Source of the DNA: Ardenticatenia bacterium
Lineage (GTDB): Bacteria; Chloroflexota; Anaerolineae; Aggregatilineales; JALXEW01
DNA: 40,823 bases
Reading direction: 5' to 3'
Assembly (NCBI GenBank): GCA_027069285.1
Contig: JALXEW010000258.1
Location: forward strand, 1 to 40,823
Under the pieces are notes generated by a model. That model ran no database searches, had not been told where the DNA came from, and saw nothing but the letters and a program-made list of their open reading frames with translations. Of this stretch, positions 3,142 to 39,920 are shown piece after piece (the first letter of the stretch is position 1; each line of letters starts with the position of its first letter). Position numbers and translations under genes: made by a program.

Positions 3142-3151
3142 GGTCGTAGTT

Positions 3152-3165
3152 TGAGAGCGCTCCCA
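3152..3165. promoter_or_regulatory. LacI-family operator O1
   Basis: TGAGAGCGCTCCCA is a 14-bp pseudo-palindrome with a central CG and 6 of 7 arm positions symmetric. It fits the LacI-family TGnnnnCGnnnnCA layout and lies just downstream of the -10. Confidence 0.6.
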
Positions 3166-3224
3166 CGGCGCCCTCAGAGAAAACGGGCCAAAACGGCGCT
3201 TTTTAGCCTTTTTGACGGTGATTT

Positions 3225-3238
3225 TGAGAGCGCTCCCA
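3225..3238. promoter_or_regulatory. LacI-family operator O2 (identical copy)
   Basis: The exact same 14-mer TGAGAGCGCTCCCA ends 2 nt before the lacI-family ATG. It is 73 bp centre-to-centre from O1. Confidence 0.6.
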
Positions 3239-3240
3239 CA

Positions 3241-18218: not shown

Positions 18219-18300
18219 TGCCGGAGGTGGGATTCGAACCCACACGGGTTGCCCCGCGCGATTTTGAGTCGCGTGCGTCTGCCTGTTCCGCCACTCCGGC
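18219..18300 (-). tRNA. tRNA-Leu (anticodon CAA)
   Basis: Hand-folded cloverleaf. Acceptor GCCGGAG/CTCCGGC, 3-bp D stem, anticodon stem CGCGA/TCGCG with loop CTCAAAA, long variable arm, T arm GTGGG-TTCGAAT-CCCAC. CCA is not encoded. Confidence 0.9.
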
Positions 18301-18355: not shown

Positions 18356-18385
18356 TTGACGCCTAGAACATAAGTTCGGTATAAT
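18356..18385 (+). promoter_or_regulatory. Sigma-70-type promoter of the radical-SAM gene
   Basis: TTGACG (18356-18361), an 18-nt spacer, then TATAAT (18380-18385). Confidence 0.6.
18366..18377. promoter_or_regulatory. LexA (SOS, Cheo-type) box GAACATAAGTTC
   Basis: Matches GAAC-N4-GTTC and lies inside the promoter spacer. The 14-mer TAGAACATAAGTTC is identical to the one at the uvrA promoter. Confidence 0.65.
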
Positions 18386-18396
18386 CCCAACAGGGG

Positions 18397-19554
18397 ATGA
18401 CGGCGAGGAGACAAATGCTCATCAAAGCACAGCCCGAACTTTCCGAAAAACTGGCGCTCATGGGCAACGCGGCCAGACATGAACCGGCTGGCGATGCGCC
18501 GGATGAGCAACTCGACAAAGCCATGCACTGCATCGCATACGTCGCCACGCCCCAGGGCCGCAAGCCGATACTGAAAGCACTACTCACGTCCCACTGCGAG
18601 CGCAGTTGCCACTACTGCCCATTCCGGGCCGGACGTCCCATGCGGCGCGTGAGCTTCACCCCGGATGAGCTGGCGGCGGCCTTCGATGCCATGCACCGCG
18701 CCGGATTAGTACAGGGCATATTCATCTCATCCGGCATCCTGAACGGCGGCGTAGCCATACAGGACAAAATCCTGGCGACCGCCGACATCATCCGTCACAA
18801 ACACAAATACGCCGGCTACATGCACATCAAGATAATGCCCGGTGCCGAATACGATCAGGTCCGCCGCGCCATGCAACTTGGAGATCGGGTCTCCGTCAAC
18901 CTCGAAGCGCCATCGGCAAAACACCTACAAAAGCTGGCTCCCCAAAAAAACTTCCACTCCGAACTAACAAAGCGGCTGGCCTGGACATATGAGATACGCG
19001 CCCGCGAGGGCCTGCGTGCCGGGACAGTGACCCAATTCGTCGTCGGAGCGGCAGACGAGACAGACCTGGAACTCTTAGAACTCAGCGCCAGGCTCTACCG
19101 CCAACTGGGCCTCCGCAGAGTCTACTTCTCGGCCTTCGAGCCGATCCCCAACACCCCGCTCGAGGGCCGATCGCCGACCCCACCGATCCGGGAGCGGCGG
19201 CTATACCAGGCCGGATTTCTCCTGCGCGACTACGGTTGGGACGTGGAAGAACTGCCTTTTGCGCCAGATGGTAACCTCCGCACCGATGTCGACCCCAAAT
19301 TAGCGTGGGCGCTGGAAAACCTGGCCGAGGCGCCGGTGGACGTGATGAAAGCCTCGCGCCGGGAACTCCTACATGTTCCAGGCATCGGCCCCAAAGGCGC
19401 CGACGCCATAATCAAAGCGCGGAAACTCGGCCCATTGCGCAGCCTGGAAGACCTGCGAGCCATCGGAATACGAAACGTCAGAAGGGCCGCCCCCTTCATC
19501 CTCTTCGGCGGGCGGCGCCCCGATCGGCAGCTGACGTTATTCCCCGCCGGATAA
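18397..19554 (+). CDS. Radical SAM protein with C-terminal helix-hairpin-helix ('putative DNA modification/repair radical SAM protein' type)
   Basis: CxxxCxxC cluster motif CERSCHYCPF. N-terminal KLALMGNAARHE block. C-terminal HhH LLHVPGIGPKGADAIIKARKLG. ATG 18415 (GAGGAG 4 nt upstream) is an alternative start. Confidence 0.85.
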   Translation: MTARRQMLIKAQPELSEKLALMGNAARHEPAGDAPDEQLDKAMHCIAYVATPQGRKPILKALLTSHCERSCHYCPFRAGRPMRRVSFTPDELAAAFDAMHRAGLVQGIFISSGILNGGVAIQDKILATADIIRHKHKYAGYMHIKIMPGAEYDQVRRAMQLGDRVSVNLEAPSAKHLQKLAPQKNFHSELTKRLAWTYEIRAREGLRAGTVTQFVVGAADETDLELLELSARLYRQLGLRRVYFSAFEPIPNTPLEGRSPTPPIRERRLYQAGFLLRDYGWDVEELPFAPDGNLRTDVDPKLAWALENLAEAPVDVMKASRRELLHVPGIGPKGADAIIKARKLGPLRSLEDLRAIGIRNVRRAAPFILFGGRRPDRQLTLFPAG

Positions 19555-21090
19555 CATCTCGCGGGCCTTTTGGCGCAACTCCCGTTTCAACACCTTCCCC
19601 GCCGCCGAGATCGGCAACCCATCCGTGAAGATCACGCGCTTTGGCACCTTATACCGCGCCAGGTTATCGTAAAGGAAATCCAGCAACTCCCGTTCCGAGG
19701 CCTCAATGCCCGGCCTGAGCACCACGAACGCCCAGCCCACCTCTCCCCACTTATCATCCGGCACGCCGACCACCGCGCACTGTGCCACTGCCGGATGGCG
19801 GTAAAGCACCTGCTCGATCTCGACCGGGTACACATTCTCCCCGCCGGAGATAAACATATCCTTCTTACGGTCTACAATGAAGAAATACCACTCCTCATCA
19901 TAATAAGCCAGGTCGCCGGTGTGGAACCACCCCTCATCGTCAACCGCCTCCTCCGTGGCCTGGGGATTATTGAAATAGCCGGAGCAGAACGACGGCCCCT
20001 TAAGCACCAACTCGCCCACCTGATTCGGCCCCAGCGGACGGTTTTGATCATCGACGATCCGGGCGTCCACGTAGAAATTAGGGCGCCCTATTGAGCCGGC
20101 CTTACGTTCCGCATCCTCCGGTGCCAGGGCGAAGATGCCAGGCCCGAACTCAGTCATCCCAAACCCCTGCTTGAACCGTACCCCCTTTTCCCGCATAAAC
20201 TGCCGGATCAGCGGGACAGGCAGCGGCGCACCGCCCGAAGTACAAAAGCGCAGCGAACTGAGATCGGCCTCCGGCCAATTCGGCGCCTGGGTCATCATCT
20301 GGTACATCGTCGGCACCCCGGCGAAAACCGTCGCCCTGTACTTTTGGATCAGGTCAAGCACCAGCGCCGGATCGAACTGGCGAATCAGCACCACCGTTCC
20401 GCCCAAGATCATCAGCGGCATAGTGTAGACCAGCAAACCGCCCGTATGGAAAAGCGGGAAGACGTTGACGGTAACGTCGCCCGGCATCAGATCATGGATC
20501 ACGGTATTAAGCGTATTCCACGCGATCATGCGATGGCTGATCTGAGCGCCTTTTGGGAGTCCCGTAGTGCCGCCGGTGAACAACAGGCACGCTATATCCT
20601 CCTCGGTCAGCGACTCGCACTCGACCGGCGTATTCGGCGCCGAATCCAGCGCCCGCTCGAACAGGATACTCCCCGGAAGCCCATCGGATTCGACGTGCAG
20701 CAGGCGCGGCTCGATCCCGGCCTCCCGAACCGCGTCGCCGACAGTCCGGGCGAACTCCGACGAATAGATCACCGCCTTTGGCGAGGTATCCCGCATAAGC
20801 GCGGCCAGCTCACGCCAATGCAACCGCCGGTTATAAGGCGTCAGGATCGCGCCGAGCTTCCCGCAGGCGAAAAACGCATCCAGGTACTCGACCCCATCAT
20901 AAGCGACGATCCCCACCCGGTCGCCTTTGGAAATGCCCGCCTCGCCACTCAACCAATTAGCGAGCCGATTCGCCCGATCATTCATCTGCGCATAGGTGAA
21001 ACTCACCGCCGGGCTTTTCCCCTCATCCACCACCGCGAGCCTATCCGGCGAGTAGATCGCCCGGCGTCCGGCGACATCACCGATGTACAC
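19537..21090 (-). CDS. AMP-dependent acyl-CoA synthetase/ligase (FadD-like)
   Basis: AMP-binding signature LFTGGTTGLPKGA plus GFGMTE, TGDLAYYDEEWYFFIVDRKKDMFISGGENV and the terminal PISAAGKVLKREL. GTG start with AAGGAG 8 nt upstream. Confidence 0.9.
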   Translation of the reverse strand: MYIGDVAGRRAIYSPDRLAVVDEGKSPAVSFTYAQMNDRANRLANWLSGEAGISKGDRVGIVAYDGVEYLDAFFACGKLGAILTPYNRRLHWRELAALMRDTSPKAVIYSSEFARTVGDAVREAGIEPRLLHVESDGLPGSILFERALDSAPNTPVECESLTEEDIACLLFTGGTTGLPKGAQISHRMIAWNTLNTVIHDLMPGDVTVNVFPLFHTGGLLVYTMPLMILGGTVVLIRQFDPALVLDLIQKYRATVFAGVPTMYQMMTQAPNWPEADLSSLRFCTSGGAPLPVPLIRQFMREKGVRFKQGFGMTEFGPGIFALAPEDAERKAGSIGRPNFYVDARIVDDQNRPLGPNQVGELVLKGPSFCSGYFNNPQATEEAVDDEGWFHTGDLAYYDEEWYFFIVDRKKDMFISGGENVYPVEIEQVLYRHPAVAQCAVVGVPDDKWGEVGWAFVVLRPGIEASERELLDFLYDNLARYKVPKRVIFTDGLPISAAGKVLKRELRQKAREMLSGGE

Positions 21091-34357: not shown

Positions 34358-35844
34358 CCGCCGAGCGCAATCATCACCACCCTGGGCGTGATCCACGCCT
34401 CGATCATGGCACTGACCATCAACATCGGCAGCACCAGCCCGATCCACACCTGCAAAGTCTCGGCCAGAGCCACCAGCCAGGCCTCCCCCACAGTCTGGCC
34501 CCTCGGCGGCCTGATGAGCACCGCCCCCAAACGTAAGGCCGCCGCCGAGGCAATCACCGCCGCCGGTATCTCGATCACGCTATGTGGCAGCACCGCCGCC
34601 AGGAATATCACCGGAGAGACACCCGTATTCACAAACTGCGCCAGGATAAAGCCCAAGATCATCAACGGCGCCATCACGATCACCGCCGCGCCGACCCCGA
34701 ACGTGAACACGGCCAGCACCAGGCCGACCAGGAGCACCCGCAGATTTTGCCATATAATCAGCGGGATCAGCGAACTGCCGCCCCCGGCCAGCTCGTACAC
34801 CATGACGAAATTATCCAGCCAGGTATCGGTATCCATCTCGTCCAGCGGGATGTGGAACGCCGGGTCCTGGGCATATGACCATCCCACACCGAACCCCGCG
34901 ATCAAACAGAGGACGATGGCGATCGCCGGCTTCCACAACTTCCCTGCGGCGCCGAGCACCTCACGACGCCACCACCCCCAGAGGTCAAAACGCCCCTCAC
35001 CCCGGAAGTGGCCCCAGAATATCTCCCACGCCCAGGCCACATTGATCACATCCAACTCGCGGCCAAGCAACTCCTCGCGGTTGAAAATGTGGGCGCCCAT
35101 GCGCACAAGCAGCACCGCCGCAACCAGCAGCCCCACGAAAATACTCCACAGCGCGTCATAAGCGGCGAAGAACATGATCACACTTTCCAGCTGCACCAAC
35201 AGAGCCGCCGGCACGACTATAAAGCTCGCCAAAAGGTTGGCCGCCCTGACCGATGTGGTCTGACTGGAGATCACCACCGCCGCCGAGACCATCACAAGCG
35301 CCTGAGCAGTCGTCAGCAACACGATCTGAACCAGCAGCTCGGTTCCGGGCCACCAGCGCAACTCCCCAAACCGCAAACCCACCAGATAGACCGCCATGCC
35401 GGAATAACTGGCCACCAACGGCGGGATCATCGCCGCCAGCGTCTTGCCGATGTAAAGCTCGGTATTAGTCAGCGGCGTCGCCAGCAACGGCTCCAAACTA
35501 CGGCGTTCCTTCTCCCCCACAAAAGTCTCCAACGCTATCACCATCGAGATCGAGATCGGGAAGAAGCCAACCACCATCAGCAAAAACGGTATCGTCCGCT
35601 CGCCGATCAGCCTGGCCCCATGCCCCTGCACAAACGCCATGAACTTATCCGCCGCGAGCTGAGCCAGAGCAGGGAATATCAGCGTCATAATGATGATCGG
35701 GCTTAATATACGCCAATCCCGCAGGCTATCGCTCACCTCGCGCCTGGTCACTATCAGCGCATTACCCAAACTGGCGCGGGCCGATTGGAGCGAACTCCTA
35801 AGCGACTTCACGTTCAAATTCACCGGCAACCTCACCTTTCTCAT
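34354..35844 (-). CDS. Fusion permease: ABC-2 type transporter domain plus SpoIIM (DUF95)-like domain
   Basis: The N-terminal ~270 aa is an ABC-2-like 6-TM permease. The C-terminal ~200 aa carries the SpoIIM-type motif AAVLPHSVIEIPAAVIASAAALRLG ... MIEAWITP. The start is ATG 35844 or GTG 35811, and either overlaps the ATPase gene end. Confidence 0.8.
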   Translation of the reverse strand: MRKVRLPVNLNVKSLRSSLQSARASLGNALIVTRREVSDSLRDWRILSPIIIMTLIFPALAQLAADKFMAFVQGHGARLIGERTIPFLLMVVGFFPISISMVIALETFVGEKERRSLEPLLATPLTNTELYIGKTLAAMIPPLVASYSGMAVYLVGLRFGELRWWPGTELLVQIVLLTTAQALVMVSAAVVISSQTTSVRAANLLASFIVVPAALLVQLESVIMFFAAYDALWSIFVGLLVAAVLLVRMGAHIFNREELLGRELDVINVAWAWEIFWGHFRGEGRFDLWGWWRREVLGAAGKLWKPAIAIVLCLIAGFGVGWSYAQDPAFHIPLDEMDTDTWLDNFVMVYELAGGGSSLIPLIIWQNLRVLLVGLVLAVFTFGVGAAVIVMAPLMILGFILAQFVNTGVSPVIFLAAVLPHSVIEIPAAVIASAAALRLGAVLIRPPRGQTVGEAWLVALAETLQVWIGLVLPMLMVSAMIEAWITPRVVMIALGG

Positions 35845-36754
35845 CCCCCTCAACCACACGCAGGTACACATCCTCCAGGCTTTGCGGCACCTCGCTAAGC
35901 GTGACCACATCCACACCCAACCCGATCAGGCGCCTGATCACCAGCGGATTAACCCGTTCCGGTTCCACGGTCACATACCTTATCCTATCGGTATCCTCGC
36001 TCACCACCTCGACCAGATCGGAAAGCTCCTGGGCGACCCCATTCACCTGTCCCCGCACCCGCAACTCCATCAGCGGCGGGCCTAGCAACCTCTCCGAAAG
36101 CTCACGGAAAGTGCCATGCGCGATTATCCTGCCGTGGCTGATTATCGCGATCTCATCGGACAACTCCTGTGCCTCCACCAAATTATGCGTCGTAATGATG
36201 ATCGTGCGCTCGTCACGGCGCAGCTCCTGTATGGCATCGCGCACCTGCCTGGCACTGCCCGGGTCCATCGCCGAAGTAGGCTCATCCAACAGCAACACCG
36301 GCGGATCGTGCAGCAATGCCCTCACCAAAGCCAGCTTCTGGCGCATACCTTTGGAATACTCGCCCAGGCGCCGGTTTACCGAATCGCCTAACCCGAACCG
36401 GTGCATCAACTCGACCGCCCGGCGGCGCCTCAGCTCGTCGGGGATGTGATATATACGCCCAAAGAAATCCAGATAGTCCAACGCCCGCATCCGCAGGTAA
36501 AGGCCATGATGTTCGGTCAGAACCCCCACATGTGCCCTCACCTCCACCGGCTGAGTCGTCACATCATACCCGGCCACGGTAGCCCGTCCGGCGGTCGGCC
36601 TCAAAATAGAAGTGAGCATTCGGACGGTAGTCGTCTTACCGGCACCGTTTGGCCCCAAAAGTGCCAGCACGGTACCCGGCTCCACCTTAATAGTCAGCCC
36701 GTCCACCGCCCTGAAATCCCCAAAATCCTTAGTTAGCCCCTCGGTCTCTATCAC
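35798..36754 (-). CDS. ABC transporter ATP-binding protein (ABC-2 partner type)
   Basis: Walker A GPNGAGKTT, signature YSKGMRQK, Walker B LLLDEPTSAMD. GTG 36754 is preferred, with GAGGGTGAGGAC just upstream and a plausible promoter TTGGCC-17-TACAAT at 36814-36786 on the minus strand. The track start at 36904 would put that promoter inside the gene. Confidence 0.85.
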   Translation of the reverse strand: MIETEGLTKDFGDFRAVDGLTIKVEPGTVLALLGPNGAGKTTTVRMLTSILRPTAGRATVAGYDVTTQPVEVRAHVGVLTEHHGLYLRMRALDYLDFFGRIYHIPDELRRRRAVELMHRFGLGDSVNRRLGEYSKGMRQKLALVRALLHDPPVLLLDEPTSAMDPGSARQVRDAIQELRRDERTIIITTHNLVEAQELSDEIAIISHGRIIAHGTFRELSERLLGPPLMELRVRGQVNGVAQELSDLVEVVSEDTDRIRYVTVEPERVNPLVIRRLIGLGVDVVTLSEVPQSLEDVYLRVVEGDEKGEVAGEFEREVA

Positions 36755-36953
36755 GTCCTCACCCTCATCTGGCGTCGTTTCTAATATTGTAGACCCCGAC
36801 GCATCGCCGGCCAATAGCCAAAAGGGACAATTCCCACACCCGGCACCGGGCTTTGCGACACATCCGCAACCCTGGTAAGCTAAATAGATGCGCCGATGAG
36901 ACACGGCAACCGACTATCGGCGCGGAAACCGGCCCTACCGCATCCGGCGCCCC

Positions 36954-36982
36954 TTGACAGGGCAGGGAGATGGGGATATTAT
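36954..36982 (+). promoter_or_regulatory. Sigma-70-type promoter of uvrA
   Basis: TTGACA (36954-36959), a 17-nt spacer, then TATTAT (36977-36982). Confidence 0.6.
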
Positions 36983-36984
36983 TA

Positions 36985-36996
36985 GAACATAAGTTC
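36985..36996. promoter_or_regulatory. LexA (SOS, Cheo-type) box GAACATAAGTTC
   Basis: TAGAAC-ATAA-GTTCTA starts 3 nt after the -10 and covers the expected transcription start. uvrA is a classical SOS gene. Confidence 0.7.
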
Positions 36997-37010
36997 TAAG
37001 AGTCGCCATC

Positions 37011-39920
37011 ATGGCTCAAGATAAAATCATAGTGCGCGGCGCGCGCGAACATAATCTCAAAAACATAAACGTGGAGATACCGCGCGGGAAACTGGTGGTC
37101 ATCACCGGCATCTCCGGCAGCGGCAAATCATCCCTGGCGTTCGACACCATATTCGCCGAGGGACAACGGCGCTACATCGAGAGCCTATCGGCATATGCCA
37201 GGCAATTCCTGGGCCGCGTGGAAAAACCGGATGTCGAACAGATCGAAGGCCTCTCCCCTGCGGTAAGCATCGACCAAAAAGGCGTCAGCCGCAACCCGCG
37301 CTCGACCGTTGGCACGGTCACCGAGATATACGACTACCTGCGCCTGCTTTACGCTCGAATCGGAATCCCCCACTGTCCCGTCTGCGGCGAAGTGGTACAA
37401 CGTCAGAGTGCCCAACAGATCGTGGAAAAGATCGAAGCCCTGCCGGATGGGACTCGCATCCAGATATTGGCGCCGCTCGTCCGCGACCGGAAGGGTCACC
37501 ACAGCCGCGTATTCGAAGAAGTACGCAAAGCCGGTTTCGTCCGCGTGCGGGTTGACGGCCAGGTCTACGACGTTGACGAGGGGATCGAACTCGATCGCTA
37601 CAAAAAGCACACTATAGAGGTAGTCGTAGACCGAATAATCGTGCGCAGATACGACGATCGGGAAAGCGAGGACGCCGAATCGGCCCGTTCCAGGCTGACC
37701 GATAGCGTCGAGACCGCGTTGGAAATGGGCGAGGGCGTGGTCGTGATCAACAACGTCAGCGCCAACCCACCACAGGACATGATCTTCAGCGAGCATCTGG
37801 CCTGCGTCCACGGCCACATGAGCCTGCCGGAATTCGAGCCACGCTCATTCAGCTTCAACAGCCCGCACGGCGCCTGCCCGACCTGTCAGGGACTGGGCTT
37901 CAAACTGGAGATAGACCCCGACCTGCTGATCCCGGATAAAAACCGCAGCATCGCAGATGGCGCCATCGAAATGTGGGGAGTTGACGACAAAACCAGCACC
38001 CGATGGCAAATATTTCAAGCGCTTTCCGATCGGTACGGGATACCCCTGCACGTCCCCTGGGGAAAACTTTCGGAAGAGCACCGGCGGATAATACTTTACG
38101 GCACCGGCGGAGAGCGAATCCGGGTGCGATATGTAGACCGCGACGGCAACTACCGAGAATTCACATACAAATTCGAGGGCGTGATACCAAATCTCCAGCG
38201 CCGCTACGAAGAAACCACATCCGAAGCGATGCGTGCCCGCATCGAGAGCTACATGACACATCGGCCATGTCCGGATTGCAAAGGCGCCAGGCTCAAGCCA
38301 GAGGCACTGGCGGTCACCGTCGGCGGCCTGAACATATACGAAGTCTCCAAAATGCCGGTCTCCCGCCTCAAAGAGTGGGTGGATAAACTCCGAGGCACCA
38401 ACGGCGAGAAACCACTACTCAACGAGCGCGAGCTGACCATCGCCGACCAGATACTGAAAGAAATCTCCGACCGCGTGAACTTCATGGCCGACGTAGGCCT
38501 GGACTACCTGACCCTGGATAGACTAGCCGGCACCCTCAGTGGTGGCGAGGCCCAAAGGATACGTCTGGCCACCCAGATCGGCTCCAGGCTAACCGGCGTG
38601 CTTTACGTCCTGGACGAACCGTCCATCGGGCTGCACCAGCGTGACAACGCCCGCCTGATCCGGACCCTGGAAGCGATGCGCGACCTGGGCAACACCCTAC
38701 TGGTCGTCGAACATGACGAATCCACTATCCGCGCCGCCGACTGGGTGATCGACCTGGGGCCTGGGGCAGGCGAACTGGGCGGCAGAGTCGTCGCCGAGGG
38801 AACGGTGGAGCAGATCATGGAAAACCCCGATTCGCTCACCGGTGCCTACCTCTCACGCAGGCTAAGGATACCGATGCCATCCCGTCGCCGGCCCGGAAAC
38901 GGCAAAGCCCTGGTCATACGGGGCGCACGTGAGCACAACCTCAAAAACATAGACGTGCGGATACCGCTTGGAATGCTGGTTTGCGTCACCGGCGTCTCCG
39001 GCTCCGGCAAAAGCACACTGGTGGTGGACGTGCTATACCGCAAACTCGCGCAAGTGCTGCACGGAGCACGCATACGACCGGGTGCCCACGATACCATCGA
39101 AGGGATAGAGCACATAGACAAGGTAGTCAACATAGACCAGTCGCCCATAGGGCGTACCCCCCGCTCGAATCCGGCCACCTATACCAAACTATTCGACGCC
39201 ATCCGGTCGCTCTTTGCCGAACTGCCGGAAAGCAAAATACGCGGCTACACTGCCGGGCGATTCAGCTTCAACGTGCGCGGCGGGAGATGCGAAGCCTGTC
39301 AGGGCCAGGGCCAGCTACAGATCGAAATGCAATTCCTGCCCGACGTATTCATCCCATGCGACGTCTGCAAAGGCAAAAGGTACAACCGGGAGACGTTACA
39401 GATACGATACAAAGGCAAAAACATCGCCGACGTGCTTGACATGACCGTAACCGAGGCGCTGGAATTCTTCTCCAACATCCCGCCCATAGTCAACAAACTG
39501 CGCACCCTCGAATCGGTCGGCCTGGGCTACATACGGCTGGGGCAACCGGCGCCCACACTTTCGGGTGGCGAAGCCCAAAGAGTCAAACTCAGCAGGGAAC
39601 TGAGCAAACGCGCCACCGGGCGCACCCTCTACGTACTGGATGAGCCGAGCGTTGGCCTCCACGCCGCAGACGTATCACGTCTCATAGACGTACTTCAGCG
39701 CCTGGTTGACCAGGGCAACACCGTAGTCATCATAGAGCACCACCCAGACATCATCAAAGTGGCCGATTACATCATCGACCTGGGGCCAGAAGGCGGGGAC
39801 GAAGGCGGCTACGTGATCGCCACCGGCACACCGGAAGCCGTCAGCCGCATGGAACATTCCTATACCGGCCAATTCCTGCGCGAGTATCTGGCAAGAGAGC
39901 GCGAATTCGCCAAAACCTGA
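37011..39920 (+). CDS. uvrA: Excinuclease ABC subunit A
   Basis: Unmistakable UvrA: [42 protein letters not shown], two ABC modules, zinc-finger cysteines ([25 protein letters not shown]). Confidence 0.97.

Follow-up and report, generated by a model that had tools for sequence, protein, structure and literature searches.

A LexA-type operator in the promoter spacer of a solo radical-SAM/helix-hairpin-helix gene of Chloroflexota

The radical-SAM gene and its promoter

The window analysed here, that is, the whole stretch of 40,823 nucleotides, is the entire 40.8-kb contig JALXEW010000258.1 of an Ardenticatenia bacterium (Chloroflexota), and it carries a gene for a radical S-adenosylmethionine (SAM) protein with a C-terminal helix-hairpin-helix (HhH) domain, whose promoter contains a palindrome of the LexA type. 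The promoter, located by a promoter scan, consists of the -35 hexamer TTGACG (18356–18361, plus strand) and the -10 hexamer TATAAT (18380–18385, plus strand), with 11 of the 12 positions identical to the consensus and a spacer of 18 nt, and is of the sigma-70 type. The operator TAGAACATAAGTTC (18364–18377, plus strand) lies in the spacer between these two hexamers, and was assigned by the motif match, by the score of a matrix made from foreign promoters and by conservation in orthologues. Its core, GAACATAAGTTC (18366–18377), corresponds to GAAC-N4-GTTC. The original prediction had put such a box in the TTGACG/TATAAT spacer, and it was exact in its position, with the box being kept across the orthologous promoters as described below. 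The overlap of the motif with the core promoter is what is expected of a member of a LexA regulon. Moreover, the promoter sequence of this locus is identical in two independent assemblies.

The open reading frame (ORF) that follows encodes 379 amino acid residues (18415–19554, plus strand). The ATG at 18415 is the likely start rather than the in-frame ATG at 18397, which would give 385 residues, since the former matches both the database call (P0001) and the N-termini of the orthologues, and a probable Shine-Dalgarno sequence, GAGGAG (18405–18410, plus strand), is present 4 nt before it. Ahead of the start codon that corresponds to that of the orthologues in the alignment, the copy in the window has 18 extra nucleotides (18397–18414), including this GAGGAG. 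The protein was assigned by its matches to TIGR03916, PF04055 (Radical_SAM, 42 bits) and PF12836 (HHH_3, 33.2 bits against a cutoff of 27) and by its AlphaFold2 model. The CxxxCxxC motif for the [4Fe-4S]/SAM cluster is formed by C61, C65 and C68 (18595–18618, plus strand) and is invariant in 27 members of the clade and in three canonical TIGR03916 proteins, while the C-terminal HhH domain (19330–19464, plus strand) is a ComEA-like DNA-binding domain and matches solved ComEA structures (2duy and 8dss) by sequence in a profile search of PDB sequences, in which all hits were of the HhH or the HydE type. The combination of a radical-SAM CxxxCxxC core with a C-terminal HhH, which had been read from the letters, is therefore established by the two Pfam matches and the invariant cysteine motif.

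Conservation of the operator in orthologous promoters

The box at 18366–18377 has one more exact counterpart in the window, at the uvrA promoter, and the significance of the two boxes judged from the window by itself is weak: 2 exact GAAC-N4-GTTC sites were observed where 0.47 would be expected, and at least two occurred in 7 of 100 shuffled sequences. In addition, repeated 14-mers are frequent in this DNA (41 against about 13 in shuffles). These figures are what would favour the reading that both boxes arose by chance in promoter DNA that is rich in AT, and the case for an operator rests on the comparison with other genomes. A 14-bp weight matrix built solely from the radical-SAM promoters of other genomes gave 22.9 bits for the uvrA site and 21.4 bits for the radical-SAM site, with 10.9 bits for the next best site in the window, a gap of 10 bits. 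The other sites with one or two mismatches in the window were rejected as operators, all being intragenic, with GC-rich spacers and at most 10.9 bits.

For this comparison 80 orthologous radical-SAM loci with flanks of 10 kb were taken from GTDB species representatives (51–64% protein identity), almost all of which are labelled Chloroflexota and come from Anaerolineae, Caldilineae, Ktedonobacteria, Aggregatilineales and Phototrophicaceae. An exact GAAC-N4-GTTC occurs between -250 and +60 of the radical-SAM start in 46 of the 80 loci, usually about 25 nt upstream, and these 46 are most of the 64 exact sites found in the total of 1.42 Mb, which corresponds to a roughly 140-fold enrichment. When up to one mismatch is permitted together with an AT-rich spacer, a site stands at the equivalent place in 77 of the 80 loci, with the consensus aGAACAwaTGTTCg/t. 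The arrangement of the promoter is conserved as well: a TTGACA-like hexamer 3–4 nt upstream and a TATAAT-like hexamer 0–2 nt downstream of the box are present at 67 of these 77 sites, and the spacer in these 67 promoters is mostly 17 nt, although the flanking sequence has diverged. The same position of the box is thus kept in most of the 80 loci while the flanks diverge, which, with the 10-bit gap in the window, refutes the chance reading, and we regard its probability as next to nil. The significance of the operator follows from the scores of the foreign-promoter matrix and from this conservation upstream of the orthologues, as expected of a LexA regulon, and the operator is a real and conserved element within the promoter spacer of the radical-SAM gene.

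Some further features of these promoters were noticed. The start codon lies 6–8 nt past the -10 hexamer in 54 of the 67 orthologous promoters, from which leaderless mRNAs are predicted. The remaining 18 exact sites in the radical-SAM loci are for the most part intragenic with GC-rich spacers and look like chance occurrences, and a few AT-rich extra sites (in loci L004, L006, L027, L036 and L038) have no identifiable gene downstream. In two of these loci (L004:6530–6570 and L006:16600–16640) a box-bearing promoter is followed by no identifiable gene and might belong to an unannotated small SOS gene.

The motif at uvrA and recA, and the LexA boxes of canonical homologues

The second operator, again TAGAACATAAGTTC (36983–36996, plus strand), belongs to uvrA, a canonical SOS gene for excinuclease ABC subunit A (37011–39920, plus strand; NF001503, 1528 bits), and its palindrome is AGAACATAAGTTCT (36984–36997). 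It follows directly on the -10 element of the promoter TTGACA-17 nt-TATTAT (36954–36982, plus strand; promoter scan, 11 of 12 positions matching) and lies over the expected transcription start. The recurrence of the same 14-mer at the uvrA promoter 18.6 kb away had been pointed out before, and it was recovered here at this position as well as in uvrA orthologues. Among 80 metagenomic uvrA orthologues (63–74% identity, 711 kb), 17 have an exact box in the 200 nt before the gene, where the exact sites of the whole set number 26, and about 13 further ones have a box with one mismatch. Their usual layout, TTGACG-17-TACAAT with the box 2–3 nt further on, is close to that of uvrA in the window. Furthermore, the same motif is found just past the -10 element of recA in one Anaerolinea metagenome-assembled genome (L056). 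The check proposed with the original prediction, that the motif should be met at other SOS genes, was thus answered by recA and by the 17 uvrA orthologues, and together with uvrA of the window these are the canonical SOS genes at which a LexA regulon would be expected to show its motif. In terms of exact boxes, the radical-SAM gene is the more constant carrier (46 of 80 against 17 of 80 for uvrA).

Several variations were seen around uvrA. In several contigs (L084–L163) a variant with one mismatch, GAATATGTGTTC or GAATAAGTGTTC, recurs about 85–105 nt before uvrA, and two overlapping boxes stand between uvrA and a divergent gene in L115 (1900–1935). In the window the uvrA operator is placed in a divergent intergenic region of 106 bp (36905–37010), which is common to uvrA and a gene for a DrrA-like ABC transporter ATPase (35798–36904, minus strand) that is followed by a gene for an ABC-2/SpoIIM-like permease, and LexA at this operator could in principle also influence the promoter of the ATPase gene.

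The protein that binds the operator is most probably LexA, as the motif suggests with good support, since in Firmicutes and Actinobacteria it is well established that LexA recognizes GAAC-N4-GTTC (PMC3323433). It might be argued that the palindrome is instead the operator of another regulator and that the gene stands outside the SOS response, considering that no lexA was met in the sequences searched and that the binder is deduced from the motif only. However, the same established consensus is also present at uvrA and recA, and the proteobacterial homologues of the radical-SAM gene have LexA boxes of an unrelated kind at the same place. In the three operons examined, which are located on proteobacterial chromids and in which the radical-SAM gene is linked to a gene for a UdgX-type protein, a LexA box of the own phylum is located 29–39 nt upstream, namely GAAC-N7-GAAC in Azospirillum and Paracoccus and CTGT-N8-ACAG in Caballeronia, and is the sole such motif of its locus. 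This would be hard to explain unless LexA were the common regulator. Moreover, SOS regulation of the family has been published, the COG1573-COG4277 operon being reported as part of the SOS response of Verrucomicrobia, Alphaproteobacteria and Bacteroidetes (PMC8565304). We therefore consider a regulator other than LexA very unlikely.

A sister subfamily without a linked partner, and its proposed role

TIGR03916 (rSAM_link_UDG) is the best and only strong NCBIfam match of the window protein, with 262.1 bits (E 1e-77), which is below the equivalog cutoff of 343.5 bits. The same holds for all 27 clade members tested, for which TIGR03916 is the sole hit and the best E value is 2.8e-78 (about 264 bits), while three canonical proteins score 547–578 bits. 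Because the whole clade falls below the cutoff and the canonical proteins lie so far above it, the Chloroflexota proteins are classified by their sequences as a sister subfamily of TIGR03916 and not as stray or marginal members. The earlier assignment to the 'DNA modification/repair' radical-SAM family therefore stands as to the relationship, and has to be amended as to membership. In the alignment with the canonical members the identity is 38–41% over the full length, with many invariant residues in common in the CxxxCxxC core and in the HhH domain. The N-terminus is different: the three canonical proteins have three cysteines (in ASC, GIC and GRC) ahead of CxxxCxxC, of which the Chloroflexota clade has retained the second alone (C39, with a conservation of at least 90%), with a deletion of four residues at the first. 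The loss of the other two in this N-terminal part of 60 residues (18415–18600 of the window) may represent a lost site for a metal or an auxiliary cluster or a lost partner interface, as judged from three canonical sequences.

The surroundings of the gene also differ from the canonical arrangement. On the upstream side there is a divergent gene for tRNA-Leu(CAA) (18219–18300, minus strand; ARAGORN, and Rfam RF00005 with 57 bits), the tRNA being all that the Rfam search found. On the other side a convergent gene for an acyl-CoA ligase (19537–21090, minus strand; ORF and family match) overlaps the 3' end of the radical-SAM gene by 18 bp, so that there is no downstream partner in an operon. Both neighbours are as had been described. 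The statement of the original prediction that genes of this family normally stand beside a partner resembling uracil-DNA glycosylase (UDG) is correct for the canonical members, which are followed by a gene for a TIGR03915-TIGR03914 (DUF4130-UdgX) fusion protein. The TIGR03915 partner, which is frequently present as a fusion with a UDG of the UdgX type (TIGR03914), is missing next to this gene, as had also been noted: with three canonical partners as queries, tblastn found no match in the contig or within the 10-kb flanks of the 80 loci, and neither UDG nor DUF4130 appears in the Pfam inventory of the window. When 291 flanking ORFs were clustered, no group was larger than 15 members, and this largest one was confined to a clade. 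The candidates among the flanking genes were rejected as conserved partners, because Pfam assigned their representatives to unrelated housekeeping functions (solute-binding protein, dihydroorotate dehydrogenase, D-Tyr deacylase, thymidylate kinase, epimerase, aldo-keto reductase and ABC ATPase). Since there is no partner in the 80 loci and the neighbours are not conserved, the solo arrangement is a property of the Chloroflexota clade and not of a single locus.

Three Phototrophicaceae loci (L063:8521–10001, L067:9110–10001 and L080:9128–9999) show another organization, in which the box is followed by a gene for a protein of 276 amino acid residues and then by the radical-SAM gene, the stop of the former overlapping the start of the latter. 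This protein belongs to no Pfam or NCBIfam family, has a weak likeness to the C-terminal repeats of squalene-hopene cyclase (E 2e-3) and may be a lineage-specific accessory protein. Elsewhere in the window, TTTGAGAGCGCTCCCAC, whose core is palindromic, was seen twice in direct orientation (3150–3166 and 3223–3239) downstream of a TTGACA (3114)/TATACT (3137) promoter and just before the ATG (3241) of a gene for a LacI-family regulator, which adjoins a sugar ABC transporter and a GH26 and GH116 cluster, and the pair probably serves as auto-operators.

The enzyme may nevertheless be not self-sufficient, and a DUF4130/UdgX-type partner (TIGR03915/TIGR03914) or an analogue could be encoded elsewhere in the genome, perhaps also under LexA control. 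The canonical relatives always have the partner next to them, a large interface between the radical-SAM protein and DUF4130 is predicted in an AlphaFold3 study (August 2026 preprint), and the Phototrophicaceae operons with the 276-residue protein behind the same box tell that accessory proteins do occur. On the other hand, the contig and the loci within 10 kb are free of it, their neighbours are not conserved, and a clade that lies below the TIGR03916 cutoff and has lost two of the three N-terminal cysteines would fit a changed mode of action. We consider such an unlinked partner unlikely.

As to the substrate, the AlphaFold2 model of the protein (pLDDT 87.5) has its nearest solved folds, among the top 50 of Foldseek, in HydE, BioB, ThiH, HydG, LipA, MiaB, RimO and PFL-AE, with a TM score of about 0.45. 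With HydE, BioB, ThiH, LipA and MiaB/RimO as the closest folds and no DNA repair enzyme, it is conceivable that damaged DNA is not the substrate, that the enzyme serves, for example, RNA or tRNA modification or converts a small molecule, and that the HhH is only a general tether for nucleic acids, the more so as the August 2026 preprint describes a narrow channel in which a single strand of nucleic acid would be favoured, of a type that could not be decided. Against this, LexA control of the family extends over four or more phyla, whose operators differ, its canonical members are linked to a protein of the uracil-DNA-glycosylase family, and the HhH resembles that of ComEA, a DNA binder, so that a substrate other than damaged DNA appears quite unlikely to us. 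A LexA box has been retained throughout by homologues whose phyla use three unrelated LexA motifs. This is a strong argument for a role of the enzyme in dealing with DNA damage, and DNA is its probable substrate.

Considering the operator, the promoter and the protein together, we take the radical-SAM gene to be a monocistronic member of the SOS response in an Anaerolineae-like bacterium of the Chloroflexota, with a sigma-70-type promoter, where LexA would sit on the operator in the spacer and block RNA polymerase. Upon DNA damage, the RecA-stimulated self-cleavage of LexA would release the promoter, and uvrA, with the same operator 18.6 kb away, would be induced together with the radical-SAM gene. 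The ComEA-like HhH domain at the C-terminus might then tether the enzyme to DNA, where SAM would be cleaved and the resulting 5'-deoxyadenosyl radical could abstract a hydrogen atom from the damaged nucleotide. What the specific chemistry may be is a guess, for example a direct reversal or a processing of the lesion, possibly by the enzyme alone and by a logic like that of spore photoproduct lyase.

Some of the findings speak against this proposal. The reading that the gene is SOS-regulated and its product directed to DNA has to be reconciled with the sub-cutoff TIGR03916 score, by which the function may have diverged, and with the fact that the substrate and the reaction are unassigned for the whole TIGR03916 family. 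The box at uvrA is present only in about 20–40% of the relatives. No tblastn match to lexA was obtained in the window and 160 related loci (about 2.1 Mb) with approximate Escherichia coli and Bacillus subtilis queries, which shows no more than that lexA is unlinked to the loci searched, and the LexA family is absent from the Pfam inventory of the window. In Dehalococcoides, LexA reportedly binds GAAC-N4-GTTC and does not regulate recA, and on this account the SOS regulons of Chloroflexota may be atypical. With these points taken into account, we regard SOS (LexA-type) regulation of the gene together with a DNA-directed role of its product as likely, and damage induction of the gene would follow from it. 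For direct reversal of lesions in particular, our confidence is low. It is a tentative thought, to which we incline less than to its opposite, that the Chloroflexota enzyme is self-sufficient, with a partner nowhere in the genome, and that its gene is the most consistently LexA-controlled one of the phylum, ahead of uvrA.

For three other phyla (PMC8565304) it has been published that genes of this enzyme family (COG4277 with COG1573) are controlled by LexA, and what is new here is the occurrence in Chloroflexota, the sister subfamily that has no linked partner and the fixed design of promoter and operator, mostly leaderless in the relatives. In our literature search no description of an SOS regulon was met for Anaerolineae, Caldilineae and Ktedonobacteria, and an operator that forms part of the promoter spacer and has persisted in three or more classes makes the radical-SAM gene a marker for the otherwise undescribed SOS regulon of Chloroflexota. 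The radical-SAM/HhH family is widespread and repeatedly under SOS control, with its reaction still unassigned, and a distinct Chloroflexota subfamily has dispensed with the linked DUF4130-UdgX partner. A system of one gene can be expressed and assayed more readily than one of two components, and should the enzyme indeed be self-sufficient, it would offer a minimal system for the lesion chemistry of the whole TIGR03916 family.

Compared with the canonical TIGR03916 systems, the CxxxCxxC core, the C-terminal HhH, the identity of 38–41% and the LexA box directly upstream are common, and the chemistry is unassigned for both, as the original prediction had said of the family and as the August 2026 preprint still states for the canonical pair of radical-SAM protein and DUF4130. 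The difference is that the window protein scores less than half as many bits as the canonical ones and that none of its 80 relatives has a linked partner, and the Chloroflexota genes, with one of the three N-terminal cysteines and the four-residue deletion, are monocistronic and in the relatives mostly leaderless. Spore photoproduct lyase, with the SplB-like proteins (COG1533), is likewise a radical-SAM enzyme under LexA control, a widespread repair enzyme with a known or presumed hydrogen abstraction on DNA lesions, and serves as a working analogy. It is not known to have a C-terminal ComEA-like HhH domain. A closer relationship to it was rejected, since no chain of spore photoproduct lyase was matched at E ≤ 1 when PDB was searched with the clade profile and none was among the top 50 of Foldseek. 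With the Gram-positive SOS box (Cheo box) of B. subtilis and Mycobacterium, the operator described here has the same palindrome, an AT-rich spacer of 4 nt and the overlap with the core promoter in common, whereas here it is found in Anaerolineae, Caldilineae and Ktedonobacteria, and its placement in a promoter spacer of 17 nt is unusually fixed across the clade.

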